Assembly (NCBI GenBank): GCA_964001325.1
Contig: CAXFCR010000003.1
Location: 1-56,118, forward strand
From: an uncultured Gammaproteobacteria bacterium
GTDB taxonomy: Bacteria > Pseudomonadota > Gammaproteobacteria > Enterobacterales > UBA3532
Length of the DNA stretch: 56,118 nucleotides
Direction: 5' to 3'
How positions within the stretch are numbered: position 1 is the stretch's first letter; the number at the start of each line of letters is the position of its first letter. Below, piece after piece: positions 294-56,118 of the stretch. Position numbers and translations under genes: made by a program. The notes below the pieces were generated by a model that was not told the DNA's origin, searched no databases, and saw only the letters and a program-made list of their open reading frames with translations.

Positions 294-589
294 CAGGATT
301 CAATAATCTCGAGCTAGTGCCGTCTCGCAGAGCAATTGAGCGATTGCCGACCGCTTGAGCTCTACTCGCATCAACTTCAATGCTTATTGGGCGTTCCAAA
401 AGCGACAATCGAAGGAGCGGCTCAATTCTAAGCTGGCTAGACAAAACGATGAGCTCAGCTCAGCTAATGGATGGCGTCGTCTTAATTAATCTTAAAAGAC
501 CCACAGCCAAAGTAATTTTGCATGCTACTTGATCATAAACTTCGAGCTAAATAAAGTTCGTGATCTCACCCTGCGTTTTTCAATATGTT

Positions 590-618
590 TTGATTACAGA
601 GCTTGGGTAGATTATGAT
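590..618 (+). promoter_or_regulatory. Candidate sigma70 promoter for the giant-protein operon
   Basis: TTGATT (590-595), a 17-nt spacer and TATGAT (613-618) match the consensus at 4/6 and 5/6. It lies ~20-35 nt upstream of the likely start codons (640/652). A weaker candidate, TTGATC-17-TAAAGT, is at 529-557. Confidence 0.5.
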
Positions 619-651
619 TGTGCGCATTTTTCACCGTGTATGGATCTAATC

Positions 652-726
652 GTGCTAACAGGATATAGCTTAATCCGACGGTTACTAGTCACATTTGTGA
701 TTATTGCCGCGATTCCCGCTTTCGCA
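652..726 (+). other. Sec/SPI signal peptide of the giant protein
   Basis: RR n-region, hydrophobic LLVTFVIIAAI, and an A-F-A cleavage motif ending at 726. Confidence 0.75.
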
Positions 727-3700
727 ACTCAACCAGATATAGATATTCGAGTCCGCTCTTCGTTAAGCTCCTCGGCAAAAGAAATATTCTATACTCTTAC
801 AATAAGCGATTGTTCTCAAATAAAGACGGCGTTACTCAAAAGTGGTAATAATGTCATCAACTCGCTTGTAGCTGCTGACTTTGTGCACGGTTCTACAGGA
901 GCCAGTTGCTACCATGATTTCGAGCTTGAAAGTGGTGACAAGTTAACACCGACCGTAGACCTTGATTTTTTTAACGCGATACCTCCACTAACTTATTCAG
1001 AAACGTTTAAAGTTGAGTACGAAAAGCCATCACTATCAATAGATTCTGTTGCCCTTATTGCCGTTGATAGTGGTCAAGAGCTGGTTGTAACATTCAGTGC
1101 TGATGACGATATTGACGGTGATGTTTCCTATCTATCTGCATCGGTAACCGGCGTTAGGGCATCTATCTTGAGAAAGTTTGGCGGTGTTCTCGATGAAGCA
1201 AAGCAGCGCTCTTTTGCCAGTAGCAAGGGAGCACAAACTCTATATCCTACGATAGATGATCAAACCCAATATACTCTTTCTATCCCAGTTACTGAGTCTC
1301 TGAGTGGGGAAGAGATCGCTCATGATGGCTTAGTTTTAATAGATGCATCGGTAGTCGACGCATCAGGTAATGCAACTTCTAGCTCAAAAATCGCCTTTAC
1401 TGGTGGGGATGTTCACGAAAATGCGCTAAGTCTCATAGCATTTCCTAAGGCTATTTCATTCACAAACATGCTACAAACCGCCACGGTTATTCCGAGTGTT
1501 GAGTTTCAATTTCGCGGTTTAACGCCATTACCTGGAGCGGGCAGTGGGGTAAGTTATCAGTCCAGTCACCCAGATTACATAAGTGTTCAACCAAATGGGG
1601 TAGTTGTTCCTCTTAAAGAGCTAAAAGATGATCTGGGAGTCCCTATTCAAGCGACTATAAGCGTTGCATACGAAAATCTCGAACCCGTGCATATCCCAGT
1701 CACTACGGATTTGAGTAAAAAGCTGACAGGATTAGAGTTTGTTCTAGATGATGAGGGCTCCGCTGAGTTTGTCCTACCAAGCTTGAATTCCTGGTATGGA
1801 ATCCCTGATGTAATGGCCCTTTTTGACGATGGTACAACCGCAGAAATTAGTAAGCAGTTTCCGTTGCAGTATTCGTTAAATGCAGGATATGAAAATATAT
1901 TTGATTTAAACGAATTTCTAAAGCTTAGAGCTATTGCCGCTATTCCAGTAGAACATGGGGCTACCCTAAGTGTCGCGCTTAAAAATAAGCCAGAAATAAA
2001 TACCGTTATACCAATAGCATCAAAAGATGCTATGCCTACCGTGGAGCTGGTTGCCGATAAGCAAGTAGAAGTTGGATCTAATATCGATGTGATCGCTAAG
2101 GCTAAGGATGATGTTGGTATTGAGCGAGTTGAGTTTTATGTAAACGATGCGCTTTCAGGTACGACAGTTACTGCCCCTTATAAATTATCGTTAACGACGA
2201 CCGACTTAATGATAAATAGCACCCTGACTGTATTCGTCAAAGTTTATGATACTGAAGGAAAGCTCGTTGAGTCCGCTCCTGTCAGTATTAATATTGTAAG
2301 TAAACAGGCCGACGAAATACCTGTATTAATACTTGATGAGCCCAGGGAGCTTCAACGGTACGTTGAGGGTGGAGTCATTCGCTATCAATTTAGCTACAAA
2401 CTGGGAAGTCTAAATACGCCAGAGACACTTGAACTAGGCTCTGGAATCAATTCTGTTGATTACTACCTTGATGGCAAAAACGTTGGTGTAGCAGCATATC
2501 CTTACTTCGAGGAGCGTGAGGAGTTTGGAGATGTTGTACTGTACGAAGTTTGGCGCTTAGATAGTCGAGTTCCGGAAATAGCTACTGAAGAGACATCGTT
2601 TGCGTTTTATGCCGTGTTACACAAAGGTAAAGCTGAGAAACAAACGGCATCTACAGTCATTCGAGTAATAGAAAATACACCCGCTCAAATAAATTTCATT
2701 TCTCCAGTTCCGGGTCAATTATTGACTGAAGGGCAATCAATCAGCATTGATGTTGAAATTACCGATGATAATTTGGCATCGGGCTTGGAGCTTGATTTCT
2801 TAGTTGATGGTGAGGAATATGATGATTTCACTTATACCAAGCGAGTTGAGCCTGGAACTTCACTGGTTGATAACGCATTAGACCGAGAGTCAATATCACA
2901 CTCTTTTACCTACGCCGTGCCAGAAGCAAAAGTTGGTACCTCTGTAAAGTTTGAGGTGGTGGTCATTGATGGGAATGGCGCTGTTAGCCAAGCTCCACCA
3001 CTATTGCTGCAGGTTAAAGAAGACTCATCTCCACAAGTCGCTATTTCTAAGCCTATTAACGGGGCTGAATTTGTCTCTGGTTTACCCATTGAAATTGTTG
3101 CCGATGCAGTGGACGACTTGAAAGTATCAAGGGTTGATTTTTTCGTTAACGATAGCCTTGTTGGATCAGATGGCTTTCCGCCTTTTGGCGTAGTTTATCC
3201 TACTGACAAGGTCAGTGAACCGATACGCCTTAACCTGAGGGCGGTAGCTCAGGACAGCACTGGAAAAACTGCCCAAAGCGCAACCGTGGAAGTGACTCTG
3301 GGCCAAGACGAAGAGAAGCCGGTAGTAAATATCGTTGCCCCAGCACTTGATTCCATAGAGAGTGGAGAATTTGTCGCCACGGTAACCGAAAATATTGCAA
3401 CAATTGTCAAAGTCGCAGGGTATGACAATGTTGGTGTTTCAAGGCTTCAACTACGCGGTGTACAGAAGTCGGGCCTAGTATACAATTTAACCGGTAATCT
3501 TGACGATGTAATTGACGGGGATGATTTTAGCCCACAGCCAATTCCAGAAACATTGCGTAGTTTCTCGGCAATAAAACTGCTCAATATCCCTGCTTATGTG
3601 AAAAACGATGAAAACGAGCCGAACTATTATGATATCGAAGCCACTGCTTGGGATGAATCCGGTAACGCTTCCACTCAGGCTATTTCAATCGCCGTTGTTA

Positions 3701-6700
3701 ATGATCAGCTGCCACAAGCAGAGATTTCCACCAATAAGTCCAGGTACCAAATACGGGACGAGATTGTTGCCAATGTATTCGCTAGTGACGACTTGCAGGT
3801 TGACGAAGTAAAAGTAAAGTTTTACTTGGGGGATGGGGATGATAAGCAGTTACTTAAAGAGTTTATCGCTAATAGTAGTGATGGCGATATAGTCATACCT
3901 CAGGGTAAGCGAGTACCTGTCTCTATCCCACTGGCACTAGGAGCCTTCGACTTACCAAATATAGAAAGCAACATTACCCTTGTCTCAACCGTTACCGATA
4001 ATATTGGGCAACAGTCTGAGCCGCAACAGCTTCAGGTCACCGTATTACCTGATCAGGCTTCACCCTTGTTATCGATAACATCGCCAGTGCCAGACTCTTT
4101 AGTCTATGCCGGAAAATCACGAGGGTTCCATTGGCATGCAGAGGATGACAACGGGCTCAAGCAGATTAAAGTTTTTGTAAATGATGAACTTCATAGTGAC
4201 CTGAGTTCTGAAATTGATGCTGGCGCTAAGCGCGTCGCAAGTGGCGTATTCAATCTGACCATCCCAGAAAATAATAGCGTGTTGAAGGTCACAACCTATG
4301 CTAAGGATCTGTATGGCAATGAGCGGCAGGTGGATTGGCTTTATCGTATTATAAAGTCGGACGGACCTGTCATAAAAATACGCCAGCCAGCTCTTAATGC
4401 TAGGTATATTGAAGGAGAGCTGGTATCAGTAACGGCGAATGTTGAAGACTCAATAGGCTTGGCAAACGTCGGCAACCAAGGTAAATGGGTGTATGTCATC
4501 ATCCTTCAGGGGGATGATGAAGTGGAACGCTCTTTAGCACAGCCAACGTCCATTGGCTATTATTCTGGCGCGGTAAGAATTCCTACTCTGGATAGCGCTA
4601 AGCCTTATGAGATTTACGTGGAGGCTAGGAACAAGCTTAACGAAGTGAGTCGCAAGCGGGTCGAAATTGATATTCAGAACGATATAAACGCCCCGCAAGT
4701 TCAGCTCAAAACCCCAAGTGATGATTTGTCATTGTTGCCGCTTCAATCGTTTAAAATTCAGGTTTCAGCTGACGATGATATCTATGTTGATAAATATGAA
4801 CCTGTAATCGTTACCCCCAACCAAGAAGAATTAGTACTAGAATTTTCTTCTTGGCTAGCTGAGGGAGAGATGGAGGAGATTCGTATTCCAAATGCGAATG
4901 GGTTTGGAACGGTCGTGGCTTCGCAGCATTATTATTCGAATGCTGAGGGTAAAGTAAAAATACCATTTGAACTTGGGCAGTTTGCCGGCTCTAACCTTGA
5001 GTTTTTTATCCGAGTAAAAGACAAGGGCGTTAACATTGGTGAAAGTGAGCGAGTAAATATTCACATACTCAAGGATGAAACAAAACCAGTAATTAAAATT
5101 ATTCAACCCAGTGAGGATGTATTAGAGCGCACTCGTCGAACGGCGAATATATCTTTGACTGATAATCTTCGTCTTAAAAGCTACTTGGTCTCAGCTAAAA
5201 CAATTGATGAAGCGCTATGCGATAGCGTCGAGAATGAAGAAGAATTATTCGAATCTGTGGTTCGAGTGAGTATTGAGCTGGATTTAGAATGCCTTTTAGA
5301 TGCTCAGAATACAGGACAATTTATTCTTGATATTGAAGTCAAGGATAGTAGCTCAAATGTTTCCGTCCTTAAGCAGGTAATCGATGTTGTTACAGATGAA
5401 CCCCCAACTGTCGAGTTGGTCGCTACTGAACCAGAAGATACTTTAGTACAAGGGCAAGCCGTAAGTTTTGGAATTAAAGTAATTGACGATACCGGAGTTC
5501 TTTATCCTGGAACTCCTCCATTTGATAATATGGGAGTCAGGGCCTTCGCTGCACTTACCAATCTTCCTGTATCAAAGGTAACTCTATGGCCTGGTTGGAA
5601 TGAACAGTGGAATACCAAAGTTGTTCCGAATATTAAGGTTGCAATAGATGAGCAGGTTGAAAGCTTTGAACTGTTACTCGGAACGCATTCATATTACAAG
5701 CTGGATAATAGCTCTAGTCCGACACTTGAGCACTCACCTATCGAGCACCGTATTGAAAATAATAGGAACGAGCTTAAACGAAACTTTGCTTATCTTGATG
5801 AAGTTCTTTCACTACAGACAGCTGTCGAGGTCAATGAGTATAAGATCGTTCGCTATCAAGATATCAGTTGTGAAGAAGTTGTTGCTGAAGAGATACTTCG
5901 AGCCGATGAGTTAACGATTAGTAATGTATTGAATAGTAATGTAGCCGCTGCTGATATATTCCCTATTGCAACTGCAGACCTGCCAGTTAAGCGAATTCGA
6001 ATATTAAATAACGCCGTTGCCCCCTTGAAACAGTATAAAGGAGATACGGGGCCTAGGAATGCCGTTGACCAGTTGCAGGTACAGCTGGAGATCCGTGGCG
6101 CTCAAGGCGATTACTTTATTTCCAGCTCATTGGTTTTAGATTACAAAAGTGGCAGATCGGCTGAAGTAGATCACGTTAAATATTTCAACTTGGCCTCCAT
6201 GGTCACCAGTGCTGTGTCCAAAGCGTCGATTATTGCTGCAGGGGTTGATCGCTTCTCTTCTGAGCGCGCTAGCCAGGGAAAAGGTTTAACGGCCACCATT
6301 TCTAGTATGCCTTATTTAAGGGATCTTGAAGAACCTTCGATTATTATAACGACTCCATCCGAGCAAGTTAGCGTTAGACCTAAGCAGGTTGTTAATCTGG
6401 GGTTTGAAGCAAGTGACAATAGCGGCTCGATTGAGACTATCCGTCTGTACCAATACGATAAGCTTATAGAGGAATTCAGCGGGCACATAAACCAAACGGA
6501 ATATAATCTGGATATTACGGTACCTCAAGATATCGGGTTCTCAGAATTCGATCTAACAGTAGAGGTCGTCGATCCGTCGGGTAATAGCTATCGTTCGATG
6601 GTATCTTTGCCTGTTGTGCCCAATGAACCTCCTCAATTAGAAATGGTTTCTTTTGCAACAAGAGATTCAGAAGGTAAGTTAAGAGACATCATTACTGATC

Positions 6701-9700
6701 CCGCCCGAATAAGTTATGGGGAGTTTTGGGTAAGAAGCAGTGAAAAAATTTCATTAGATATCCAGCAAGATGATGATACGGGCCTGGAATCATTGCACCT
6801 ATACAAAATTGAGCAAGATGGTAGTCGCATTCTTATCCATGAAGATGTATACCCATACGGGTGCGGACTTGCGCCATTAACCAGTAATCTGACCTCTGAA
6901 TTGGACTTCCAATTTACAGAAACCAGAGACACGCTATATCAACTGGAGTTGAAAGATATTAATGGCGTAATTACAACGCGAGACTTTCTTGTTCATCCTC
7001 TGGAGAATATGGCACCACAGATCCGCATTACATCGCCGATCGGTAAGAATGGTGCTGAGAACCCTCAGCATATAGCTGAAGGAAAGTTTAATCTTCTATT
7101 CGAAGCAATTGTTACCGACGATGATAATTCACCGCCAGTCGTTGAAGTCTATGCAGAAGGGGCAAAGCTTTATGCGAGCGTCATTTCTTCAGAAGCGTTG
7201 ATTGTCAAAGCGTTGTCCGAGCAGCAGCAAAAAAAGCTGAATGAAATATATGATGTGATCGAGCGGCAGTATGGCAGTGTATTTGCTAATCAGTACGCAT
7301 CACCTAATAGTAAAAACTTACACCTAGTAACACTATCCTTAAACTTGCCAACAACGTTATTGATTGGAAAGTCGGAGCCCAAGCTAGGCGCCACCGCGAC
7401 TGATGCAAGTGGAGCGGTGGGTTCCGACGAAATTACCCTTGTTGTTGTTCCTGACGAAATAGAGCCCGAGTCTGTCTTTATCGATCCCGTTGTTTATGGT
7501 CCAGTTGAGGGTACGGATTTTACCCTTACCTTTTCTGCTTTAGATAACGTTAAGGTCGATAGCATTGAAGTTTATGAGCAGTATGCAATCCGCAGAGGCA
7601 GCGGAAACTACGAATTTTCGGGCTACAGGGAGCAGCCTATTAGGTCTATCTCTAATATACCCAGTAAAGACCGGGTACCGATCACTACCAATAGTATTGA
7701 GGCGCCCATTTATAAACATATTGTCAGCGTCGATAAGATAAAAGATATCGTTGCCAAGTTTGATAGCCTTGTACTAACTGGGAATGAGGTGTACGAGTAT
7801 TGGATTAAAATCCGTTCACAAGATGCCGCTGGTAAAGTCGATGAAATCGAAAAAAGCTTTCTAGTGCGAGTTGATGAAGCGCCGGTTATCGACGTGTTAC
7901 AGCCAGCTAATGCCTCTCAGTTGGTTGAGGGAAGTCATGTTCCGGTACTGGTTAACGCCTTTGATGATGTAGGCATCGATCATGTACGCTTCACTAGTAA
8001 AATAAATGGTGAGGAGATCGAGAGTCTAGTACTTCAAGCTCCACCCTATGGCTTTTCATTGTCGGTTCCTAGTCTCGTTGATAACAATGACCGATTAACC
8101 GTTGAGGTTGAGGCTATTGATCTGTACGGGGCTGAGAGTGGAGATCTGGATAATCATCAGGTAACAGAAACCTTGCATTTCCAGATTGTTCCCGACCAGC
8201 CACCAGCGATTAGTATTGCCAAACCTGTCAATGGTGATGAGGTTTTTGAAGGCGAGCTTCTGCTGGTTCAAGTCAATGCCACTGATGATATCGGTGTTGA
8301 TAGTGTTAGTTTGCATATCGACGGTCTGATTTCTGGAGCCGAATTACTAACAGACAGTATTTTCCCTTTTGAATTTGTCGTTCAAGTGCCTTTTGGCCAA
8401 GCAAATAAGGACCTGTCTCTCTCAGCAACAGTGACAGAAAAACGCAACAGCGAGCCGCGAACCGTCAGTACGTTGGTTCCGACAGTGGTTAACGTTAAGA
8501 AAGATACCTCGCCACCACTGGTAAATATCAAAGCGCCCAAAGAGAGTGGGGTAGAGATACAAGAGCACCGTTCACTGCCCTATCATATTGAGGCAACGGA
8601 TAACGTTAAGGTCAGCTCCATTAATGTGTCTTTATTAGCGGATAAGGACCAGAATGGGTCATTTGATGACAGCGATATGGTCGTTAACCAACTCTTGCTT
8701 AGACCCCCATATGTGGGGGCGATAGAAGTCGGAAATATATTAGAGTATGTCGATACTCCCTCTCTTACTTCGCTGCCTTTAATGTTTAGAGTGAAAGCGA
8801 TTGATGGGGTCGGCAATGAAACCATTGTTGAACGAATGATCGACCTGGTGAAAAATCCACCACCGACAGTAGAAGTAATAAGTGTTATCGATAGGAAAGG
8901 CCGCAATCTTATTAAAGGCTTTGATTTTAAAGGCGAGCCTATCCAGGGCGTCGACTTTGAACTGGTAGAAGGCGTTGAATACTTCTTTATCATAAATGCC
9001 ACCGACCACTATGGCGTTGATTCCGCTAAGGCCTATCTGAACGATACAGGGCTTCAGCCGAGTGAGGAGCATTTATTAGGTGAGGATGTTTCAGTTCCGT
9101 TTCGCTTTATGTATAAAGTGCCTTATGGAAAGGTCGGCGAACGATTGCATGTATTTGGTCAAGCGACAGATATTGATGGCAATGTTAGCGCTATCAGTCC
9201 ATCCATGCTTAGCTTCACGATCAAAGAAGATCAGCCGCCACAAGCAAAAATCATACGTCCGACTTCTGATCAGTCTGTAGTTATTGAAGGCCAAATGATT
9301 GAGGTCTTTGTTGAAGCAAATGATGATTTGGGCCTTGATGGGATTGATAAAGTTGTCTTCTATGTGAATGACATTCCCTATAAAACCGTTTATCAAGACT
9401 ATACCCATCAATCTGGCAATGTTGCTCAGGAAAATATCTATCATGCCAGTCTGGCTCCGCCATTAGGGGTTGACGGGGTTGTTATTCATGCCGTTGCTCA
9501 TGATGTTGCAGGCCACACCACAGAAACCCAAAAAGTGGTGGTAGGGCAAATTGCTGATACAGTGGTTCCTGAGTTAAGCATTCTTCAGCCACCTAATGGC
9601 GAAATATTAACGGCCTCACAAAGTATTCAAGTCGTTGCTTCCGTCACCGATATCGGTATCGAAGAAGAACGTCACGTGTTTTACCAGTTCGTACGCGAAT

Positions 9701-43143: not shown

Positions 43144-43147
43144 AACT

Positions 43148-43972: not shown

Positions 43973-43994
43973 GCCTTAGTTTGGGATACTCCTA

Positions 43995-46900: not shown

Positions 46901-49900
46901 ACCTTATCAAGCAACGTCTACGGCCTGGGAAGTACGGCTCAAAGAAGTGGGTGAGCCCTATCGCCAACTTAGCCAGATAGTATGGGTTTTGGCGGATACA
47001 AAAGCACCAACCCTTCGTTTGGATAACCAAGATCAAATGACCTATGAGTTCGAATGGGAGATCACGGGCAGTATTGTGGAAGAAGGGCACGGTCTGGCGG
47101 AGTTTTACCTGACCAATAGTTTACAGCCTGACAATCAAGTCAGTCTAACCGCTGATGACAGTGGGCAGTACGCCGCCACTATCTCTCTGATAAGAGGGAT
47201 AAATACCATAACGGTGGTGGCCATAGATAAATCGGGGAATCGCTCAGAAGCTCAGGTAACCATTGAGCAGAGAGAAAACCCAGATCGAGATGGCGATGGT
47301 GTTCTCAATAGCCAAGATGAATTTCCCGATGACCCAACGAAGTTTAGGCTCAGCCCCATCGAGCAGCTGACCATAGCATCTGCTCCGGCGCTGGTAACTG
47401 TATCATGGCCAGCGCATACCGACCCTGTTGCCGCCTATCGAGTGTACCGACAGAAAAATAGTGACGACTATCAACTGCTCTCAGGTGATGTTCTTTCTAC
47501 CAGTTTTACTGACCATAAAGTTGAGTTGGGCGGGTTTTATCAATACTACGTTGTCGCGGTGGGCTTCCGAAGCGGTGAGAGCGATCCAAGTCCCGCGAAA
47601 AGTACATGGCTAACATTCAATGACAAAGGGGTTGAGCAAGCCCTTGCTACAGTAAATATCACCAGTATAGAGCTAACCTGGGGGGCGATGTCACTCCCAG
47701 TTGTTGTTGAGCGTTCAATGAATGGCGGCGAATTTGCCCAAATAGCAGAGATAGCGCCTGGCGTTAATCAATATAAAGATGCGTCTCTTCAAGCAGGGCA
47801 GTATCAATATCAACTATACACCCAGCGACAATTTCAGCATCCAGTTACATTAGATGAGGCACTGATTGATGGTCCTGTCACTGAATTAGAACCATTGACG
47901 GTGCATGAACTTTTATCCCTTGATTGGTCGTTTACCGAGCCAGATAGCATCAATGGTGAAAGGGGAAGCTACATCAAAGAAGGCGAAACACTTAAGGTTA
48001 GTGGCACCATTATTAACCCTATTGTTCCGCTTCAAATAAGTGCGACAGCGGGAGATGTAGAAGTGGCCGGACAGGTGGTAAACCATCAGTTTACGTTAGC
48101 ATTGCCTTATCTGCCGAGCACGACAGCCTGGACCGTTGTGCTTTCTGAACCAACGGAGCCATTTCGCAGGCTCACTGAAACGGTGATGGTGTATGCCGAT
48201 ACAACCCCTCCCGATCTAAAACTAAGCAATGCAAACGCGGTAACATTTGAATATTCCTGGACTATACAAGGCAGCGTCGTAGATACAGAGCATGGCCTTG
48301 CGGAGGTCTTCGTATCAAACAGCCTGACGCCTGGTGAGAGCCAGGCTATTCAGGTGGATGACAATGGCCAGTTTTCAATCAATGTGCCGTTAGTTCGAGG
48401 GCTAAATAATATTCGTGTTACGGCACGGGATCGCTCTGACAATAAATCTGAAGCTAGCGTAACCATTGAGCAACGAGAAAACCCTGATCGGGATGGTGAT
48501 GGGGTGCTAAACGATGTCGATGAGTTTCCCGACGATCCCAGCCGTTATAGGCATAAGCCTGTTACCGGACTGTCTATCACTGCATCTGATACAAGCGTTA
48601 AACTCATGTGGGATCAGCATCCAGAAAACCCACCATTTTTCCGCATTTACCGACGTGAAAATCATGGCAGCTACCAGTTATATCAAGACAACGTCAGCGC
48701 ATATGAGTTTATTGATCAACATATCACGAATCTTACAGGCTATCAGTATCAGGTCGTGCCGGTTGGAAACGTCAGCGGGGAAGGGGGGATTGCGCCAAGC
48801 GTTGAGACTTATATTGCCTACAATAATCAGCAGGTAACAGAGCTTGAAGCCGTAGTAACAGCCAATAGCATTGGCCTCTCCTGGACAAATAATACCGGGC
48901 TGCCAGCTAAGCTTTATGCGCTTTCAAATGTCGGCACGCCACTTTTGGTCAGTGAAGATAAGCAAGTGATCCATAGGCTTACCACGTTAGAGGCTGGACA
49001 ATATCGCTATCGTGTGCAAACAGAAATAGTAACGACCAATGTTTATACCAACGAAGTGCTTAAGCTTGCTGGCCCCGCGTTAGATACAGATCTTTTAACC
49101 GTGGAGCCACTCAGTGACATTGTGTGGACTATTCAGACGCCACAGTTTGTTAAGAATGCACCTTATTATCCTACAACAGTTGAGCCTTTGGTGGTTAGCG
49201 GAACAGTTGATGGCGTAATGGCCGATATTAGTATTACCGCGATGGTTGAAGGCAATGAGCCAATAGAGGCAACGATAAATGAACAAAACTGGCAGGTAGC
49301 CATTCCTTATCCAGATGGGGAGTCGCGGGTTACCTTTACCCTGTCCGAGCTCAGTATCCCTTCTCGAACCCTCACAAAAGAGGTGGTGATAGCCAAAGAT
49401 GATCGTGCGCCGGATATCGATGTTTTTGCTGAAAGCCTTACCAAAGAAGAGCAAATAGTCATCCATGGTACAGCAATAGACAGCGAAACCGGGATCCAGG
49501 CATTATCTGCTGTGAATAACTTAGTGCAAGGGACGACATTCGATATCTCGACCGATGCGAATGGTGATTACAGCATGCAAATACCATTATTGATCGGCAT
49601 CAACACCATCACTGTTACCGCAACTGACTACCTCGGCAACACCGAAACGGCAACCGTATCTATTACGCGAGAGCCCAACGGCCCACAGGTAACCTTTGCT
49701 TCACCAGCGAACAATAGCGTTATCTATCCTCCTGCTGAATCCGAAACAGAATCACAGGAAGGTACTATTAGTGTGGTGCTGAGCATAACAGCCATTGAAC
49801 CCATTGATGATATTTCGGTATCGCTTAACCAGGGTGGCGATTTGACCCTGACCGGAGAAGGGGGTGTCTATACGGCAACCTTTACCGGAGTGATGTTGCA

Positions 49901-52031
49901 AGAGGGTGATAACTACATTTCCGCTATTGCGCAATCGCCTTCGGGAACAGGTTCGGCAGCGGTGAACGTGTTTTATCATTCGGATGAGCTGACGGCTTCG
50001 AATCCTCCAACACTGAACTGGCAACTTCCCTATGACAACCAGCTGGTCAAAGGTGAAGAAGTGAAAGTAAGCGCTAGTGTCTCGGCGCAAACCCCTGTTA
50101 GTGTTTCAATTAACGGGCAAGCGGCCACATTGGTGAATGGCACGTTAACTTCAGGGACGGTTGCTGAAAAGGTTAGCATACCAGAAGGTGTCTCTGAGTT
50201 TGCTATTACCATCACGGTAACGGACCTAGCGGGCGGCGAAGTATCTCAAACCAGAACGGTTTACCGAGATAGCCAATTACCGACAATCAGCGTAGATAAT
50301 GGCTTTAGTGAATACCCACAGCTTAATCTGATAACAGCGAATCCTGTTGTGATCCGAGGGCAGGTTGCTGATGACAACTTAGCCAGTTTAACCATTGATG
50401 GAGTAACTGCACAGTTCACCCAGAGCGGTGATAATCAATATACGTTTAATGGCGTCGTCGAACTGCCCGTCAATGAAAACCATGTAGTATCTATTGTCGC
50501 CCGTGATCATGCTGGGAATGAATCCTCTGTTAGTTACACCATGCTTTATCAAGCAGCGGTCGCAGCGAAAATCATTATTCCTGAGCGAGGCGCAGTCTAT
50601 AGGCCATCAAGCGACTCATGGGAGCTGGAGCTTACCGCACTTGTTACACCAGCCGGAGACTACCGGGCGTCCCTTGTTGTCGAGCAACAGGCTTATGAGC
50701 TATCAATCAATAATGGGGTTATTAATGGTCAGGTTGAGCTAAGTGATTTGAGTGGTGAGGTAGAGCTATATCTGAAAATACAAAATCTAGATGAAGAAAC
50801 TCTCGCACTGGTATCCAGAACGGTACAAGTCGAGCCGTTTCTTGATCAGACATTAGCCGTCAGTCGCACCGAGCCACCTAATCTTGCGACCGGGGTAGAG
50901 CCAGTCCGCCCTGTTAGTATTTTCTTCAATCAGGCGATTGATAACGATCTGCTTAGTATTGAAGTGAGAGAAACTGCACACGGAAAAACCTATTTTACCG
51001 ACTATGCACCAGGAACCAGTGTTTTACAGGCGCAGGGAGCACAAACGGTAGCGGTTAACCGAGACCACTCGCTGGTTGAGGGGGATTTAAGCTTCCTTCC
51101 TGGCAACATGCTAACGGTTTTTTACCCTAAAAAGACATTAGCTTTTGGGGCAACGGTATATGTGGATATTAACTATGATGGCAATGAACTCTATCGATTT
51201 AGTTACCAAACTCGTAAAATCCCCACATTCTTAACCGGCGTGGTTAGCGACCAGTTTAATCAAAACATCTCAGGCGTTGAGGTTTCGATCCCTGAGCTTG
51301 GTCGTAAAACCCTAACCGATGAAAACGGGGGGTATGGTTTCGGGTTTGATGATTCAGAAGAAAATGCGATACCAGCAGGAAATTACGAAGTCTGGGTTAA
51401 TAGAGAGTATAAATTAAGCCATTTTGGTGCAGCCAGTCGGCTAATCCATATCGAGGAGGGCGAGCTAAATCGTGCGCCCATGCTGGTGGTACCACAGCTT
51501 GATCCTTCGCGCAGTTATCAAGCCGTGTCTTCTGAGCCTACTACGCTACATTTGGCGGAAGGGGAGTTAATTATCACCTATGATGATGCTGTTGCATGGG
51601 AGTTTCCCAATGAAGCATTGGTACAGGGTATTCGTGCTGACTTTATACGCTCCGACCAAATTGGCATGTCGGCAGCAGCTGTCGAAAGCATCCCGTTATG
51701 GATGTTTAATATTCAGCCTGCGGGTATTGAACTGAGTGGCGACGTCGATCTGGACTTTTTTATTCCGAAAAATCCGTTGGGTTTCTGGCTGTTAAAACAA
51801 GATGCCGAATATGTCGTTATATTAGGCGTAGATAAAAACAGCCTTACTATCGTGCCGATTGGTGCTGGTGTTGTTGAAGGTGGGCGAGTTAAAGCATCGC
51901 TTGAGCTTGAACAGCAACGACTAGATTATCTGGGATATGCCAGTGTTTCTTATGAAACCGAGGCTGTTCTTAAACAATATTTAAATGGCGAGCTTAGCTG
52001 GTTTCAGGTTCTAGCTCGCTTAGCCCCATAA
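43995..52031 (+). CDS. Large (2,678 aa) exported MAM-like / FN3 / Ig (glucodextranase-B-like) / carboxypeptidase-regulatory-like domain protein
   Basis: ORF track. GGGA RBS at 43983-43986 (start GTG 43995 or ATG 43998). Signal peptide ...FVLVALALPAFA|SQA. FN3 motifs (YYRVYRR...YQYYVSAV), Ig motifs (GINTITVVAIDKSGN), Big_5-like (LAVSRTEPPNLATGV) and CarboxypepD_reg-like (LTGVVSDQFNQNISGVEVSI...TLTDENGGY). Confidence 0.9.
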   Translation: MMNMIRSLYWCFVLVALALPAFASQALWNTSFESNAEKAAWSLSDGWDYADSQGEPVSGLRYKTAGSGSSLSPENAESIRNKSILVPSTAKAPVLQVNYRIKNAVVTFWVKRVGSRSGWHRVGRIVGSNTVNTLKKKEISLHSHKGHSLLLKLTVESLTNQNGSIDIQELSITDVPDVTYPFPYRNSFDPTASVDEKAGLDHWLLHGFWGGISSNKHYKSLSKPFHLNANPSRSVSSHWAFMQARMDGFVNIPSDASNPILRFHYMSGGLYLTLYAQTQHDGKWHILRRFGQQDYRPVYTPIEIDLSGFKDQAIRLNFAYSASANRTIQPFLVDNLEIIDNQQPYKNYPFTDNFETLTDDWLLEGLWNSQAHQSAAYIDVADNQQLLSDMGKRHLSSNPDYNDSNGYARRAALMSRFVKIPKSSINPVLRFKYATNSTRFRVLYQMEGTSHWHVLKDYAKVHFSQRFKWEEIDLDAFVGKSIRIKFEEFVVFGQSASFIAVDNVYIGNVQLDDYDYPYNTNFEEPLGRHDSQKDTNALNDINGWSDWSFEGTWGIQRSTSSRPSESGDYYLTSRIDDMKVTRAHKLSSRLQGFITIPEDATNPTVSFSQFSPAALGSIHVQSASDSGWKALTSLTNIQVADNGYQRVHYSLSGYEGQRIRLRFDDVITPSATSAWMIDNLRVGDAETDTAISDFDTDGDGIFNDFDEYPNDPSQYKLEPVSSVDTLFTGELNQITWQHHNNDVAYYRVYRRENNGEFILIADKLLGTSFRDTQFNNGSVYQYYVSAVSYVSGEGDPSALSENWVTTHHHSVANLLAVANIVSIDLSWIKSPWPVVIKRSKNGGMFTPIATLRPRVNQYKDTPLSAGEYRYQVISFREFVHPITGERKVIYGRILQTPPKVILPLHPLEWTFTQPEPDQNHEMREYVLSGAELHVHGTIINRRVPMSIEAVSGTEVITGTISNGEFEITLPYQATSTAWEVRLKEVGEPYRQLSQIVWVLADTKAPTLRLDNQDQMTYEFEWEITGSIVEEGHGLAEFYLTNSLQPDNQVSLTADDSGQYAATISLIRGINTITVVAIDKSGNRSEAQVTIEQRENPDRDGDGVLNSQDEFPDDPTKFRLSPIEQLTIASAPALVTVSWPAHTDPVAAYRVYRQKNSDDYQLLSGDVLSTSFTDHKVELGGFYQYYVVAVGFRSGESDPSPAKSTWLTFNDKGVEQALATVNITSIELTWGAMSLPVVVERSMNGGEFAQIAEIAPGVNQYKDASLQAGQYQYQLYTQRQFQHPVTLDEALIDGPVTELEPLTVHELLSLDWSFTEPDSINGERGSYIKEGETLKVSGTIINPIVPLQISATAGDVEVAGQVVNHQFTLALPYLPSTTAWTVVLSEPTEPFRRLTETVMVYADTTPPDLKLSNANAVTFEYSWTIQGSVVDTEHGLAEVFVSNSLTPGESQAIQVDDNGQFSINVPLVRGLNNIRVTARDRSDNKSEASVTIEQRENPDRDGDGVLNDVDEFPDDPSRYRHKPVTGLSITASDTSVKLMWDQHPENPPFFRIYRRENHGSYQLYQDNVSAYEFIDQHITNLTGYQYQVVPVGNVSGEGGIAPSVETYIAYNNQQVTELEAVVTANSIGLSWTNNTGLPAKLYALSNVGTPLLVSEDKQVIHRLTTLEAGQYRYRVQTEIVTTNVYTNEVLKLAGPALDTDLLTVEPLSDIVWTIQTPQFVKNAPYYPTTVEPLVVSGTVDGVMADISITAMVEGNEPIEATINEQNWQVAIPYPDGESRVTFTLSELSIPSRTLTKEVVIAKDDRAPDIDVFAESLTKEEQIVIHGTAIDSETGIQALSAVNNLVQGTTFDISTDANGDYSMQIPLLIGINTITVTATDYLGNTETATVSITREPNGPQVTFASPANNSVIYPPAESETESQEGTISVVLSITAIEPIDDISVSLNQGGDLTLTGEGGVYTATFTGVMLQEGDNYISAIAQSPSGTGSAAVNVFYHSDELTASNPPTLNWQLPYDNQLVKGEEVKVSASVSAQTPVSVSINGQAATLVNGTLTSGTVAEKVSIPEGVSEFAITITVTDLAGGEVSQTRTVYRDSQLPTISVDNGFSEYPQLNLITANPVVIRGQVADDNLASLTIDGVTAQFTQSGDNQYTFNGVVELPVNENHVVSIVARDHAGNESSVSYTMLYQAAVAAKIIIPERGAVYRPSSDSWELELTALVTPAGDYRASLVVEQQAYELSINNGVINGQVELSDLSGEVELYLKIQNLDEETLALVSRTVQVEPFLDQTLAVSRTEPPNLATGVEPVRPVSIFFNQAIDNDLLSIEVRETAHGKTYFTDYAPGTSVLQAQGAQTVAVNRDHSLVEGDLSFLPGNMLTVFYPKKTLAFGATVYVDINYDGNELYRFSYQTRKIPTFLTGVVSDQFNQNISGVEVSIPELGRKTLTDENGGYGFGFDDSEENAIPAGNYEVWVNREYKLSHFGAASRLIHIEEGELNRAPMLVVPQLDPSRSYQAVSSEPTTLHLAEGELIITYDDAVAWEFPNEALVQGIRADFIRSDQIGMSAAAVESIPLWMFNIQPAGIELSGDVDLDFFIPKNPLGFWLLKQDAEYVVILGVDKNSLTIVPIGAGVVEGGRVKASLELEQQRLDYLGYASVSYETEAVLKQYLNGELSWFQVLARLAP
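44073..46045 (+). repeat. Four tandem MAM-like/jelly-roll domains
   Basis: Starts LWNTSFE, YPFPYRNSFD, YPFTDNFE and YPYNTNFE, each followed by W-x-x-x-G/D-x-W, later IP-x-x-A/S-x-x-P-x-L/V and I/Y-x-L-x-x-F/Y/H-x-G/D-x-x-I/L. They end IQELSI, VDNLEI, VDNVYI and IDNLRV. Confidence 0.6.
46077..49670 (+). repeat. Three ~401-aa tandem repeats (DxDGDG loop + FN3 + FN3 + Ig + Ig)
   Basis: DTDGDGIFNDFDEYPNDP at 46077, DRDGDGVLNSQDEFPDDP at 47283 and DRDGDGVLNDVDEFPDDP at 48486, with periods of 1206 and 1203 nt. Nucleotide similarity is visible at the junctions (accattgagca..gagaaaacc). Confidence 0.85.
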
Positions 52032-52044
52032 AAGGAAGTATGTC

Positions 52045-55000
52045 GTGCAGTTAAAGCGCCACCAAAGAATTTACCAATACCTATGGATAGCCCTGCTCTT
52101 AAGCCTATCCTTTCAGGTCACCCCCGCCACCAACAAAGCCACCACCCAGGGTCGGGTATTCGCCAAAGTCATGGTCTTTGACGACGAAGGGAACCCGATT
52201 TGGGCGGAATACGACACCGAAAACAGCACCGACGAAGGGGAAGCGCTGGTTAATGTCATAGGCCCGGCCACGGGCGAACTGGCGGCGGGGGAAGCCCGCG
52301 TCTACTCTGCTGAACTCTACCGCGCCTATCAAGCGCTCTACACCGCCTACCAAAACAGCAGCCAATACCCCGACGCCGAAGGCGCTGTGATGATGACGCG
52401 GGAAGAGTATGAAAATCACAGCTTTGAAACCGCCTTGGGCGACCCGATAGACGCCCCGGATCTGCAAGACGCCACCCACCAGGTACTGGTGCTCAATAAA
52501 AGTAAACTAACTAGCACCTCAAGCGAACGCTACGACGTCAGCGAGCAGGGCTACTTCTTATGGGATATCGAAGATGGCATCGAACTTATTCCCGATACCG
52601 ACTTCGGCGACGCCTTTGTCATGCCCGCTGAACTCTATCGCCAATACGCCGCCTTGCCCACCGACTCACCGGTATTAGACGCCTTTGATTTTGCGTTCAA
52701 TAGCAATATCAGCTCAAGCGCTAAGTACCTGCTGCTCAGCCAAAGTGGCACCATCCTGCACGAATCTGCGCAGCCGATTGAACTGCGGCGCAAAAGCGAG
52801 CCCACCAGCCCGATATTGATGGAAGTGCCCTTTATTCTGACCAACGAACAAGGCGAACTCTTCCCGCCACCGAATGAAGACACCGCCAGTATCCTGTTTA
52901 AAAAAGACGGTACCATCCATCAAAGCTCGAAGTTTAATATCGGCTTTCAAACGGCGGTTTATCAAGATAAAGACGACGCCTACCACAATACCGGCAAGCC
53001 CCATCTCGGGAAGGGCGACACCATCTTAGGCCCGGTTCGGGGCATGATGGTCGAAAACAGCGGGGCGCATCCCGGTATCACCCAAAGCATAACCGATGAA
53101 GACGGCCACTTTAAACTGCTACAAATCCTCACCTGTCCTGGCTTTGACTTTGAATACACCATCAGTTTAGTTTACAAACTGGATATTCAACGCTTTAACC
53201 CGTTTCGAGGGCGACATAACACCTTTATTTACAAACGCGGCATTGACTACCGTTGGTGTTGGGGCTCGCATGAACTATTGCTTGGTTCTGGCTCTTTGGC
53301 GGGAATGTCGGCCTACATGTCAGCCGTTGCTATCCTCGCCACCAATGCCGTACCTTACCGCTATAAATACGTCAACTTCTCCATGAACTACCTCTCCGGC
53401 TCCGCGTTTCTAAAGAACGTCGAAGTGGTAGCGGATGAAGAATTCCAGCGGCGTGAATACGACATCGAAGACAGCGACGACTTCCCGAGTGCCTTTGGCG
53501 AGAATAAGCACGACACCGTGCTGGTGCAATCCAACTTCGATTTGGATAATGACGACATCCCCGAATACACCGTGCGTGGTAACATCGTGGTGGTCGACAA
53601 CAACTACCACTTTGCTCCAGCAGCGGACGGCGACTACCAAGGCGTCTACCTCAGCTCGCTGCCCTTCACCGCACCGCCTGAGCCGGATGCCAGCGACGAA
53701 GACATCGACGCCTTCTTGCCCGACTACCCGCACCTACTAAAACGCATCGACAAAGCCACCGATTTACGCAACAAAGGCCTGCCCACCAAAATCAGTGTCG
53801 ACGACCTCAGCCACACCGACATCCTGCTCTTTCGCGAATCGGACGGCAGCCTTATCATGGAGCGCCAGGGCCTGCGCGATGACGAAGCGCCGCGTTATCA
53901 GCGCACCGGCGTTAGCGACAACGAAGACAACGCCCCAAGCGAAGAAGAAACCCAAGCCGACAACCCCGGCGATGACGAACTCGACCTCTCCTACGACAAC
54001 GGCCAGCGCTTCACCTTTAATGTTATCTTTGTCGACCCCGAAGGCTACCAGCACGCCACCTTCTTGCGTCGCAACTTCACCGACGAAGAATCCGCCAACG
54101 GGGTCAGCTCCTTCTCCATCTTTCAATCCGAAAGCTACTTCACCGACGACTACCAACAGCGCGATGCCGACCACCTGCGCCCGGGTGAATTTATCACCGT
54201 GGTCATCATCAACCGCGCCACCGGCTACCTCGCCACCCAACGACTGCAAATACGCAGCGCAGGCACCAACGAAAACAACACCAACCCGGACGATTTGTTT
54301 AACGACGACGAAGACCCCGCCCAGGTTATCGAAGGGGAAAACACCCCACGCACCCAGGCCAGCCTGTTGTTATCCAACGTCATGCTCGAACCGCCCAACC
54401 TCAAAATCCAGGTCGAACGCCAAGTCAGCGTCGAGCATGGCCTGACCGCCTCGGATGACAGCAAACGCTACACCGTTGGCTACGAAGGCGCCGCCACCAC
54501 CCAGGATGACGCCATCATCATCAAAACCGCCTGGTTCGATCAAGACGGCAGCATGCTGCCCAAGGGCCTGGAAGACTACGGCTTTACCGGGCGCATCGCC
54601 AAAGTCGAAGAGCTGGCCGGTGGCACCAGCCAAATCAGCCACTTCAACATCGAGCCGGGCGCCCACACCGAAGTGCTGCGGCTGCAAGGGGCGGATATTG
54701 GCAAAAACCGCTACTACATCCACGTTAATGGCTTCTACGAAGGCCATAATGTCACCCCCAGCTTTGGTGAGCTGGCCGACAAATTCCTGCCCGATGGCAA
54801 CCAAAGCGACACCTCGCCATTCAAATACCGCCCAGAAAGCTTCGTCCCGTTTAAAGTACCGGTATCGCTCGACTACAACGTGATTGAAGCGGAAAACAGC
54901 TACGCCGAGCTACGCCAGGACATTTTAGATGGGGATAACGACTTAACCCTCGACGACATCGGCGACACCCCGGCCCAACCCTACGCCTGGCTCTATCGCC

Positions 55001-56118
55001 CGGAAATGCAATTCTCCACCTACGATTTGGTCATCAATGAGGTCAACAAACAAACCCAATGGGGAGAGCAGCTTGACTTGATGGACCAACAAGCCCTGGA
55101 AGAGGCCGGGTTCAAAGGCCCGGTCATCAGCGCCCAAGGGGACGACTGGTTTCAGGTCGTCTACGACTTATTTGCCAGCGACAGCGAGCTGGCCCCACTG
55201 ATAGGCCCAGACAACCACGACCTGCTCTGGGGGCTATACGGTGAAGAAGTGCTCGCCACCTACGGCGAAGAGAATGTCGCCACCATGCACAATGTCGAAA
55301 TGCTGCAACACCTCGACACCACCGACTTACTCATCTTCCGGCTCTATCAAAACAACGACCCCTCCAACATCCTGTGGGAATTTGGGGTGCAGCGCTCACC
55401 GCTGGATATTCAGGGCTATGCTCGGCTAACCCAAAAACAGCAAGACAGCCTGGACAGCCCGGTGAATGAGGACGACATCAACCGCCCCGACGGTCACACC
55501 TTGCTTAGTCGGGCAAAAGGCGCCAACAAAACCTTAGACGTCTACCGTGAAGTTGACATGGCCAACGGCCAAGTCTGCTCAGTAGGCGGGGTTATCTTCT
55601 TTGAAACAAAAAAAGACATTACCGCCAAACTTGAACTCATCCCTATCAAACTGAGTAATGGCAGTAGCGCTGCGGCGGAACTCAGCGCCGACTCCGACTA
55701 TGAGCTGGTTGAAAGCGAGGCCCACGTCGTCTTTGAAAACAAAACCTATGCTGAGGGCATGCACAAAATCGGCATCCAGTATGACGACCTGCCCGATGCC
55801 CAAAATACCCAGCCAGGCAGTGATGGTCAATCGGGCAACAAACGCTACATCTATCGCCTCAGCGCCGAATGGACCACCGACAGTGGCGACACCTTCAACG
55901 ACATCGCCCAGGACTTTTTATCTTACGGCTACAAAACCTACGACAAACTGCCCATCGGCCAAACCCTGGTCAAAGGGGTCAACCTGTTCTCGGGCGACTA
56001 CACCCAAGGCAACACCGACATCGCCTTTGCTGGTCGTGGCCCGGCGCTGCGCTTTAGCCGCATCTACAGCTCCAGCCTGCCGGATATGGGCCCGATGGGC
56101 AACGGCTGGGGGCACAAC
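52045..56118 (+). CDS. rhs: N-terminal part of a large Rhs/YD-repeat protein (DUF6531-like domain at the window edge), 3'-truncated and absent from the ORF track
   Basis: Read by hand. AGGAAG RBS at 52033-52038, GTG at 52045, and frame 1 open to 56118 (1,358 codons). N-terminus MQLKRHQRIYQYLWIALLLSLSFQVTPA is signal-peptide-like. The last codons read LPIGQTLVKGVNLFSGDYTQGNTDIAFAGRGPALRFSRIYSSSLPDMGPMGNGWGHN, the VN..G......D....G....L.F.R.Y.S.....G..G.GW.H motif that opens Rhs cores. Confidence 0.85.
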   Translation, partial: MQLKRHQRIYQYLWIALLLSLSFQVTPATNKATTQGRVFAKVMVFDDEGNPIWAEYDTENSTDEGEALVNVIGPATGELAAGEARVYSAELYRAYQALYTAYQNSSQYPDAEGAVMMTREEYENHSFETALGDPIDAPDLQDATHQVLVLNKSKLTSTSSERYDVSEQGYFLWDIEDGIELIPDTDFGDAFVMPAELYRQYAALPTDSPVLDAFDFAFNSNISSSAKYLLLSQSGTILHESAQPIELRRKSEPTSPILMEVPFILTNEQGELFPPPNEDTASILFKKDGTIHQSSKFNIGFQTAVYQDKDDAYHNTGKPHLGKGDTILGPVRGMMVENSGAHPGITQSITDEDGHFKLLQILTCPGFDFEYTISLVYKLDIQRFNPFRGRHNTFIYKRGIDYRWCWGSHELLLGSGSLAGMSAYMSAVAILATNAVPYRYKYVNFSMNYLSGSAFLKNVEVVADEEFQRREYDIEDSDDFPSAFGENKHDTVLVQSNFDLDNDDIPEYTVRGNIVVVDNNYHFAPAADGDYQGVYLSSLPFTAPPEPDASDEDIDAFLPDYPHLLKRIDKATDLRNKGLPTKISVDDLSHTDILLFRESDGSLIMERQGLRDDEAPRYQRTGVSDNEDNAPSEEETQADNPGDDELDLSYDNGQRFTFNVIFVDPEGYQHATFLRRNFTDEESANGVSSFSIFQSESYFTDDYQQRDADHLRPGEFITVVIINRATGYLATQRLQIRSAGTNENNTNPDDLFNDDEDPAQVIEGENTPRTQASLLLSNVMLEPPNLKIQVERQVSVEHGLTASDDSKRYTVGYEGAATTQDDAIIIKTAWFDQDGSMLPKGLEDYGFTGRIAKVEELAGGTSQISHFNIEPGAHTEVLRLQGADIGKNRYYIHVNGFYEGHNVTPSFGELADKFLPDGNQSDTSPFKYRPESFVPFKVPVSLDYNVIEAENSYAELRQDILDGDNDLTLDDIGDTPAQPYAWLYRPEMQFSTYDLVINEVNKQTQWGEQLDLMDQQALEEAGFKGPVISAQGDDWFQVVYDLFASDSELAPLIGPDNHDLLWGLYGEEVLATYGEENVATMHNVEMLQHLDTTDLLIFRLYQNNDPSNILWEFGVQRSPLDIQGYARLTQKQQDSLDSPVNEDDINRPDGHTLLSRAKGANKTLDVYREVDMANGQVCSVGGVIFFETKKDITAKLELIPIKLSNGSSAAAELSADSDYELVESEAHVVFENKTYAEGMHKIGIQYDDLPDAQNTQPGSDGQSGNKRYIYRLSAEWTTDSGDTFNDIAQDFLSYGYKTYDKLPIGQTLVKGVNLFSGDYTQGNTDIAFAGRGPALRFSRIYSSSLPDMGPMGNGWGHN

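Follow-up and report, generated by a model that had tools for sequence, protein, structure and literature searches.

What is the function of a protein of some 14,000 residues whose gene is followed, on the same strand and almost without gaps, by genes for a peptidyl-prolyl isomerase (PPIase), an immunoglobulin (Ig)-array protein and a toxin that carries its own export signal? This question is raised by contig CAXFCR010000003.1 of assembly GCA_964001325.1, which comes from an uncultured Gammaproteobacteria bacterium of the order Enterobacterales. The stretch analysed, called the window throughout, is this entire contig of 56,118 nt (C3 of the 436-contig genome G000; 3.54 Mb, 94.9% complete, 1.8% contaminated). 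It is filled by four plus-strand open reading frames (ORFs) at 529..43143, 43148..43972, 43995..52031 and 52045..56118, referred to below as genes 1-4. We propose, with a probability of about 60%, that the window is one copy of a widespread conserved cluster in which the giant protein, one or two parvulin-type PPIases and the Ig-array protein work together with a polymorphic toxin that has a constant N-terminal module (the N-module) and an exchangeable payload.

RESULTS

Recurrence of the gene set

The evidence that carries this proposal is the recurrence of the genes as a set. In a collection of named species, 76 N-module loci were found. Thirty-seven of them include a full 10-kb upstream flank; in 33 the C-terminal region of gene 3 lies directly upstream, and 32 have both PPIase genes as well, with carriers that include Pseudomonas, Cellvibrio, Colwellia, Desulfoluna and Nannocystaceae. 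In nearly all of these 32 complete loci a frame is open from the edge of the locus and ends just before the first PPIase gene. Loci with 2.5-10 kb of upstream sequence have the gene-3 region in 12 of 17 cases, and in one locus (L072) gene 3 is 6.4 kb away. The giant itself was looked for in five distant genomes: Ectopseudomonas oleovorans, Desulfoluna butyratoxydans, a Nannocystaceae metagenome-assembled genome (MAG), a Deltaproteobacteria MAG and Cellvibrio sp. 79. Its first 1,200 aa are present in all five at 30-38% identity. Adjacency could be checked in four of the five, the Nannocystaceae MAG being the exception, and in these the N-module follows the match at a distance of ~40-52 kb. Most named carriers belong to the Gammaproteobacteria, with others in Desulfobacterota and Myxococcota; those labelled Lentisphaerae or Phenylobacterium are single short contigs without context and could be mis-binned. 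An earlier note on this DNA had named recurring synteny in distant taxa as a check on whether the four genes form a system, and the outcome of that check is clearly positive. As far as sequence can tell, conservation and co-occurrence of the set are established.

The same picture was obtained closer to the window. Relatives of gene 4 occur in 2 of 40 related genomes, both times in the same neighbourhood, which consists of a 12,000-13,700-aa ORF, two parvulin genes, an Ig protein of 1,300-1,960 aa and the gene-4 relative. Searching 401 genomes of the order with an N-module profile gave matches in 10, which belong to seven families besides the window's own, and the cluster was found in seven other genomes of this order. 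The gene order giant, PPIase 1, PPIase 2, gene 3, N-module gene is seen in G015, G022, G048, G147, G266 and G050; of the five genomes read out after the first two, four share the strand as well. In the complete genome G177 the giant gene is inverted but remains adjacent to the parvulin, gene-3 and N-module genes (C1:2649239-2687560, minus strand), which argues that the set is kept together even without a common transcript. Strong matches to the giant (E<=1e-160) are present in 8 of the 401 genomes, all of them within the 10 N-module genomes; in the other two N-module genomes the module lies at a contig start. Two further genomes among the 401 have weak, domain-level matches to the giant. Related genomes are not independent, and this co-occurrence is to be read as a pattern rather than as a statistic.

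Three further observations concern the distribution of these genes. Genome G208, in which the N-module has no match, carries a fragment of the giant's N-terminal coding sequence that is interrupted by three in-frame stops (C65:46400-47062), possibly a decayed cluster. Fifteen of the 76 named loci, as well as G022 and G177, have a gene for a signal-peptidase-like protein (Peptidase_S26) a few kb behind the N-module gene, in most cases on the other strand (e.g. L024:14849-15544, plus; L039:8209-8946, plus; L059:17687-18475, minus); it may encode a dedicated leader peptidase for the giant substrates of the cluster. The window ends before the position at which such a gene would be expected. Among 72,556 plasmid records, none was matched by the N-module in tblastn.

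A constant N-module with an exchangeable C-terminus

The N-module of gene 4 covers residues 33-1113 (52141..55383, plus strand), as delimited by alignments A1-A4 and a profile search. It matched no Pfam or NCBIfam family, and the A4 profile found no chain at E<=1 among PDB sequences. Against 1.84 billion representative sequences the profile gave 838 matches at E<=1e-3, 456 of them at E<=1e-30. Among the 150 matches listed, the module nearly always starts at residue 30-100 in those proteins that are not cut at the N-terminus. The family falls into three length groups of about 1,075-1,150 aa (the module alone), about 1,400-2,400 aa and about 2,700-3,400 aa.

What follows the module differs between members. 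All 16 long members scanned contain RHS repeats and 12 of them DUF6531. Their consensus past DUF6531 consists of about 1,500 aa of YD repeats, a core and a variable tip, which is what would be expected beyond the end of the window, and the ends of the 16 include a Tle1-like phospholipase (1), a GH-E nuclease (1) and DUF6765 (2). The 25 mid-length members contain Big_1 (10), Invasin_D3 (6), Laminin_G_3 (6), DUF900 (3), Phosphodiest (1) and Abhydrolase_6 (1). Divergence can be abrupt within a genus: the proteins of G022 and G048 are 49% identical across 1,500 aa and have no similarity afterwards. In G048, G147 and G266 the GC content at third codon positions (GC3) falls by 0.1-0.2 in the variable part. 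Genome G015 has a second gene-4 copy that shares 96% identity with the first over the initial 565 aa and whose last 324 aa recur as an orphan ORF at 74% identity; the toxin end and the orphan ORF are each followed by a 532-aa gene, and these two genes are 74% identical. The second N-module gene of G015 (L023:6794-13425, minus strand) is split into ORFs of 571 and 1,615 aa at module position about 531-566; the split reflects either a frameshift in this copy or a natural border between domains.

By this architecture the gene-4 family is one of predicted polymorphic toxins with a constant N-module of ~870 aa and a variable C-terminus. The features of the Sec class of such toxins were found in their sequences: a leader, a constant N-terminal part, a variable C-terminus, and orphan cassettes with immunity-like genes. 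The earlier note had taken the Rhs protein as the toxin part of the system. This holds for the copy in the window; the conserved element of the family is the N-module, and Rhs is one of several payloads.

The Rhs gene of the window

Gene 4 (52045..56118, plus strand) encodes 1358 aa of a Sec-leader Rhs-type polymorphic toxin that is open at its 3' end, since the window is the whole contig. Its leader is QLKRHQRIYQYLWIALLLSLSFQVTPA, followed by TN. The only Pfam match, to DUF6531 (PF20148, E 3.3e-8), is at residues 1312-1358 (55978..56118, plus strand) and covers positions 4-49 of 74 of this domain, which opens Rhs cages; a linker of ~200 aa separates it from the N-module. No RHS repeat (PF05593) is present within the window because the contig ends inside DUF6531, and among the other contigs of the assembly none overlaps this end of C3 (k = 21-31). 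A metagenomic fragment, P0005, extends the sequence. It is listed as 100% identical to gene 4 (by eye, one residue differs) and runs from inside the N-module to ~230 aa beyond the window. It contains a complete DUF6531 (positions 4-74 of 74, E 2e-11) and one RHS_repeat match that is just above threshold (22.3 bits, cut-off 22, E 1.7e-4). The earlier note had named a lack of YD repeats downstream as a refutation; one RHS repeat is seen in this near-identical, independent fragment, if by a match that barely exceeds the cut-off. By its domain content, gene 4 of the window is therefore of the Rhs type.

The only other place in the genome with RHS repeats is an 842-aa ORF with a leader-like N-terminus (E 7e-16; contig C30:5889-8414, minus strand; locus L002), which stands among housekeeping-looking neighbours. 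We considered it as the continuation of gene 4 and rejected it, as it is a separate gene internal to its contig.

The window's N-module is a distant member of the family, with <=32% identity to the representatives among the matches listed, P0005 excepted. Its codon usage also differs from that of its neighbours. The GC3 of gene 4 is 0.70 versus 0.40, 0.46 and 0.43 for genes 1-3 (genome GC 0.47), and GC shifts from 0.42-0.48 to 0.54-0.56 exactly at 52031/52045. In other genomes the GC3 of the N-module matches that of the neighbouring genes and only the variable C-terminal part deviates. Because the jump in the window coincides with the start of gene 4, the whole gene has probably been replaced by a copy from a GC-richer donor. 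Such a swap is unusual for a type of locus in which normally only the toxin tips change. The junction is bridged by an X1 contig of 294 nt (51846-52139) without differences and by an X3 contig from a different study (228 nt, 51847-52072, 7 differences). Only X3 counts as independent, since X1 may be the source sample; as contigs of two studies span the boundary, we regard the join of genes 3 and 4 as real.

The giant and its partners

The earlier note had described four same-strand genes with gaps of 4, 22 and 13 nt, an export signal on each and no obvious terminators between them, and had put the start of the giant gene at 590. The gene coordinates bear out the arrangement and the gaps. None of 12 terminator-like sites in 42000-53000 falls in the three junctions, and their number is at chance level (shuffle mean 10.8). 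Judged by eye from the translations, all four proteins have a Sec-type or lipoprotein leader. The start had to be moved. No codon of the frame starts at 590; the frame opens at 529 with TTG, and the first in-frame ATG is at 640, directly followed by the signal-peptide-like stretch MDLIVLTGYSLIRRLLVTFVIIAAIPAFA before TQ (leader end AFA). With this start the giant (640..43143, plus strand) has ~14,167 aa which, at 110 Da per residue, agrees with the mass of about 1.5 MDa given in the earlier note. Upstream of the gene lie a weak sigma-70-like promoter match (590..618, plus strand; 9 of 12 positions, by consensus only) and a partial 96-aa ORF (3-290) in which no Pfam family was found.

Residues ~5-10,900 of the giant form a conserved collinear core, and residues ~11,000-14,167 a variable, modular tail. 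Against the giants of seven other genomes the core gave mostly one or two long blastp high-scoring segment pairs at 28.5-32% identity, and the last ~3,300 aa gave piecemeal matches only. The majority of the length is without a Pfam match; the families recognized are Big_7 and TIG (6 stretches each), Big_5, LVIVD, Laminin_G_3 and Big_1. TRF returned no tandem DNA repeats in the window (0 rows). When chunks of the giant were compared with one another by blastp, 28% of residues showed internal similarity, mostly in ~400-aa modules between residues 12,000 and 14,000. The giants, as aligned, are collinear orthologues over ~10,900 aa and not repeat arrays. Since a fixed succession of some hundred different domains is kept across phyla, the alignments point to a structure of defined form and not to a spacer whose length can vary. 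In the tail, paired cysteines occur roughly every 400 aa from residue 11,400 to 14,120, and glycine-rich stretches (...GAGGAIYLD..., ...GGSVGSSGGAVSL...) with a beta-helix-repeat-like look occupy window positions ~41,900-43,140 (residues ~13,770-14,167); no Pfam family was reported for the latter.

Gene 2 (43148..43972, plus strand) encodes a predicted lipoprotein-type parvulin PPIase/chaperone of 274 aa. Its leader MKLKLHGLLIVLSGLTFIPGC, followed by GG, is lipoprotein-like with a lipobox-like ...IPGC. The protein matches Rotamase_3 in Pfam (E 1.1e-30) and PPIase models in NCBIfam, the latter with scores below the equivalog cut-offs. Over its whole length (residues 24-255) it matches HP0175 (5ez1) and PEB4 (3rfw), and its parvulin catalytic domain resembles those of SurA and PrsA. 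These Pfam and PDB matches make it a putative PrsA/SurA/PEB4-type chaperone, as expected from the suggestion that a parvulin foldase is co-encoded. With the first PPIase of seven related clusters, of which it is the orthologue, it shares 30-41% identity. The usual cluster has two parvulin genes, the second of which encodes a degenerate Rotamase_2/SurA_N-like protein. This second gene is absent from the window, where the 22-nt gap has no room for a remnant. The idea of a single dedicated foldase thus describes the window correctly but not the conserved unit, which normally has two.

Gene 3 (43995..52031, plus strand) encodes an exported Ig/beta-sandwich array protein of 2,678 aa with the leader MNMIRSLYWCFVLVALALPAFA, followed by SQ. 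Pfam recognizes Glucodextran_B (5 stretches), Big_6, Big_13, InhA-like MAM and CarboxypepD_reg, and three internal repeats of ~400 aa are present. The homologues are 1,118 to 2,678 aa long, the window's being the longest; their N-terminal Ig arrays vary and all have in common only the last ~615-930 aa. In the window the conserved C-terminal region comprises about the last 615 aa (50184..52028, plus strand), which gave 27-30% identity over 600-1,330 aa in blastp against seven homologues. An alignment of the last 430 aa (A7) has a mean column identity of 52%. Its profile gave one weak match among PDB sequences (E 0.029), to a piece of a SusC homologue that corresponds to the CarboxypepD_reg-like segment.

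Export route

According to the earlier note, no PAAR or other hallmark of a type VI secretion system (T6SS) is visible here. This is borne out: gene 4 contains no PAAR match, and TssC (PF05943), Hcp (PF05638) and PAAR (PF05488) gave no matches in G000, which at 94.9% completeness is no proof of absence. A T6SS Rhs effector was rejected on these grounds. A Tc toxin (TcB/TcC) was rejected as well, since no SpvB, TcdB mid-domain-type or TcA Pfam family was found in genes 1-4 (E<=0.01). For a contact-dependent inhibition or two-partner system (CdiA-CdiB), genes 1-4 have no TPS, FHA or CdiB Pfam match and the window has no transporter gene. An RTX adhesin of the type I secretion system (T1SS) does not fit a giant that has a Sec-type leader and no RTX family, its last 2,167 aa included, in a window without TRF repeats. 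The Pfam scan also found no barrel family of inverse autotransporters (type Ve), neither in the window protein nor in 41 family members.

A type II secretion system (T2SS) is encoded in the genome, as judged from a GspD-GspE pair on contig C36. In the E. oleovorans locus (L078:13111-22172, plus strand) the gene for a stand-alone 1,092-aa module protein heads a tightly spaced series on one strand: three unannotated genes for proteins of 990, 376 and 341 aa come next, and after them GspE, GspF, GspG and GspH. A GspE-like ORF occurs in 6 of the 76 loci (the six were not all inspected), and 11 of the 76 have a relative of the 990-aa protein. With a T2SS operon immediately behind the cluster in Pseudomonas-type loci, export by the T2SS has to be taken seriously.

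The earlier note placed the system outside the named secretion classes. For the toxin itself this is too strong, since polymorphic toxins with a Sec signal are an established class: Table 1 of Zhang et al. 2012 (PMC3482391) includes such toxins with lineage-specific N-terminal domains (e.g. MafB, MAFB-N), and a passage of the same paper describes the signal-peptide route as the most prevalent, or largest, class of polymorphic toxins.

DISCUSSION

Function of the cluster

In the reading that we favour, the giant, the parvulins and the Ig-array protein act together with the toxin. We infer a physical association of these proteins, their location at the surface, a route across the outer membrane and a target as follows. 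All four proteins would cross the inner membrane by Sec. The lipoprotein parvulin would keep or fold the very long beta-rich chains in the periplasm, and the giant and the gene-3 protein would build a long surface structure. The N-module would link the toxin to this structure or to the route of its export and would thereby let the payload be presented to neighbouring cells. Sister cells would be protected by an immunity gene further downstream, beyond the point at which the contig stops.

Several findings weigh against this reading. The cluster encodes no outer-membrane component. Co-transcription is not universal, since the giant gene of G177 is divergently oriented, and gene 3 is not upstream in 4 of the 37 full-flank loci (L063, L073, L088 and L108). 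About a quarter of the members listed are stand-alone modules of ~1,100 aa without a payload; some of these may be fragments, and because such modules exist the N-module may have a role of its own beyond that of a toxin handle. No Rhs core (TIGR03696) was found in the G000 assembly, which does not include the sequence beyond 56118, and the window, ending within gene 4, has neither a toxin tip nor an immunity gene. Finally, some payloads (a phosphodiesterase, alpha/beta-hydrolases) would suit a feeding role equally well.

There is a substantial chance that the cluster is a distinct delivery apparatus. Its most ambitious form, which we put forward tentatively and consider possible rather than probable, would be an unnamed, self-contained apparatus of the diderm envelope. 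It would consist of a half-micrometre-scale fibre (the collinear 11,000-15,000-aa protein), a pair of SurA/PrsA-like chaperones of its own for export and assembly, and a base or adaptor made of the conserved gene-3 end and the N-module; the latter would be a new outer-membrane translocator or docking domain presenting exchangeable toxic payloads such as Rhs cages, lipases and nucleases to target cells. If true, a new route of contact-dependent toxin delivery would be added beside the T5, T6 and Tc systems.

The alternative that survives best, though we think it unlikely, is an operon for a surface adhesin or matrix fibre, built by the giant, the chaperones and gene 3, on which a toxin merely hitch-hikes. 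Gene 4 would then be an ordinary soluble Sec/T2SS toxin that has its regulation in common with them but no physical link. Such toxins with lineage-specific N-domains are a known class (PMC3482391), the genome has a T2SS, T2SS genes follow the cluster in Pseudomonas-type loci, and by its GC3 gene 4 of the window has a history different from that of its neighbours. Against this alternative, the N-module is kept jointly with the giant and gene 3 in different phyla. The stand-alone modules of ~1,100 aa, which are present in many clusters, are hard to square with the mere leader of a soluble toxin, and the tblastn match distance from the conserved end of gene 3 to the N-module gene is about 120-700 nt in most loci.

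Somewhat less likely still is that the N-module, the conserved end of gene 3 or both are an outer-membrane translocator or anchor, type V-like, with the C-terminus as a surface passenger and the parvulins as SurA-like chaperones that keep the chains unfolded. The module is N-terminal behind the leader nearly always, the chaperones are SurA/PEB4/PrsA-like, the cluster offers no other outer-membrane component, and behind the module 10 of the 25 mid-length members have Big_1 and 6 have Invasin_D3. Big_1/Invasin-type domains behind an N-terminal part are the order found in intimin/invasin-type proteins. Since these domains follow the module and stand-alone modules exist, we keep a role of the module as outer-membrane anchor or pore among the possibilities. 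It is set against the lack of a Pfam barrel (IAT_beta, ShlB, Bac_surface_Ag or Usher) in the window protein and the 41 members scanned, the lack of a PDB sequence match, and the very acidic composition of the module (D+E 16% in gene 4).

Doubtful, and more so than either of these, is a feeding or predation scaffold, in which the giant fibre would attach to prey or particles and the exchangeable ends would be degradative enzymes (lipases, phosphodiesterases, nucleases) that release nutrients. Phosphodiest, DUF900, Abhydrolase_6 and a Tle1-like lipase are among the payloads, the carriers include Myxococcota and polysaccharide degraders such as Cellvibrio, and the giants of Omnitrophota near T2SS-like loci and a Rotamase_2 PPIase have been read as predation tools (bioRxiv 10.1101/2023.11.21.568195). 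The array of an orphan toxin end and 532-aa genes in G015 and the abrupt C-terminal divergence within a genus are instead hallmarks of toxin and immunity, and GH-E nuclease ends on Rhs cages suggest that the targets lie inside cells. An assembly chimera, in which the giant-adhesin operon of one organism was joined to the Rhs gene of another, would explain the GC and GC3 jump exactly at 52031/52045 in a fragmented assembly of 436 contigs, and was rejected as very improbable because the X1 and X3 contigs from two studies bridge the junction and other genomes as a rule have this gene order too.

We return to the favoured reading, a toxin that works with its giant partner. How toxins with only a signal peptide cross the outer membrane and reach their targets in Gram-negative bacteria is largely unknown, and the cluster provides a concrete, testable case. 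Its N-module is genetically locked to one of the largest conserved bacterial proteins known and to dedicated chaperones, and its carriers include culturable strains such as Psychromonas aquimarina ATCC BAA-1526, Motilimonas eburnea YH6, Corallincola platygyrae JCM 18796, Colwellia psychrerythraea GAB14E and Desulfoluna butyratoxydans MSL71. Giant bacterial proteins are otherwise mostly repeat arrays; the cluster gives a functional context to proteins of 11,000-15,000 aa that are collinear across phyla. If the physical link is true, a delivery route would be added to the bacterial antagonism systems, and the retention of the giant genes would be explained.

Comparison with known systems

A full-text literature search, which did not cover supplementary gene lists, found no description of the cluster or of the N-module. 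As far as that search goes, the N-module family is new. So are the constant association of this module with a collinear giant, two chaperones and an Ig-array protein, and the distribution of the whole set over several phyla. Signal-peptide Rhs toxins are already known, and the toxin part of the cluster fits the Sec class of polymorphic toxins.

The effectors of the T6SS (PAAR-Rhs and VgrG-linked) share with gene 4 the succession of DUF6531 and Rhs cage, and Tle1-like lipase and GH-E nuclease ends are found in members of its family; unlike them, gene 4 has a Sec leader instead of PAAR. WapA of Bacillus subtilis is a Sec-exported, wall-associated Rhs toxin of a Gram-positive bacterium and is anchored to the wall by domains of its own. 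Compared by description only, it resembles gene 4 as a Rhs toxin whose exit from the cytoplasm depends on a signal peptide and not on a T6SS, and it differs in that it is not known to have a giant partner, dedicated parvulins or the N-module. Giant T1SS adhesins of the LapA and MpIBP type consist of near-identical repeat arrays and end in a C-terminal RTX/T1SS signal. The giant of the window is like them in size, Ig-like content and a likely surface role; it differs by its Sec leader, the lack of a tandem DNA repeat, few internal repeats and the lack of an RTX Pfam match.

Among chaperones, HP0175 and PEB4 match gene 2 over its whole length, and SurA and PrsA match in the parvulin domain. Unlike all four, gene 2 sits inside the cluster of its presumed clients and is usually paired with a degenerate second copy. 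In the part of West-Roberts et al. (bioRxiv 10.1101/2023.11.21.568195) that describes them, the giant genes of Omnitrophota lie beside T2SS-like loci and a Rotamase_2 PPIase. By this description, both groups have very large exported proteins beside a parvulin-type PPIase, with T2SS genes near (here in Pseudomonas-type loci only). They differ in that the Omnitrophota giants belong to another phylum and are described there without a polymorphic toxin partner, while the giants studied here are collinear across phyla.

The closest comparison is with the Sec/T2SS class of polymorphic toxins. Following its outline in PMC3482391, the likenesses are a signal peptide, a group-specific N-terminal domain, RHS or other middle repeats, an exchangeable C-terminal toxin, orphan cassettes and immunity-like genes. 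Table 1 of that paper gives no signature neighbour genes for this class. In contrast, the N-module described here is ~870 aa long, matches no Pfam or NCBIfam family, occurs in several phyla and has a giant protein, two parvulins and an Ig-array protein as its genetic partners.

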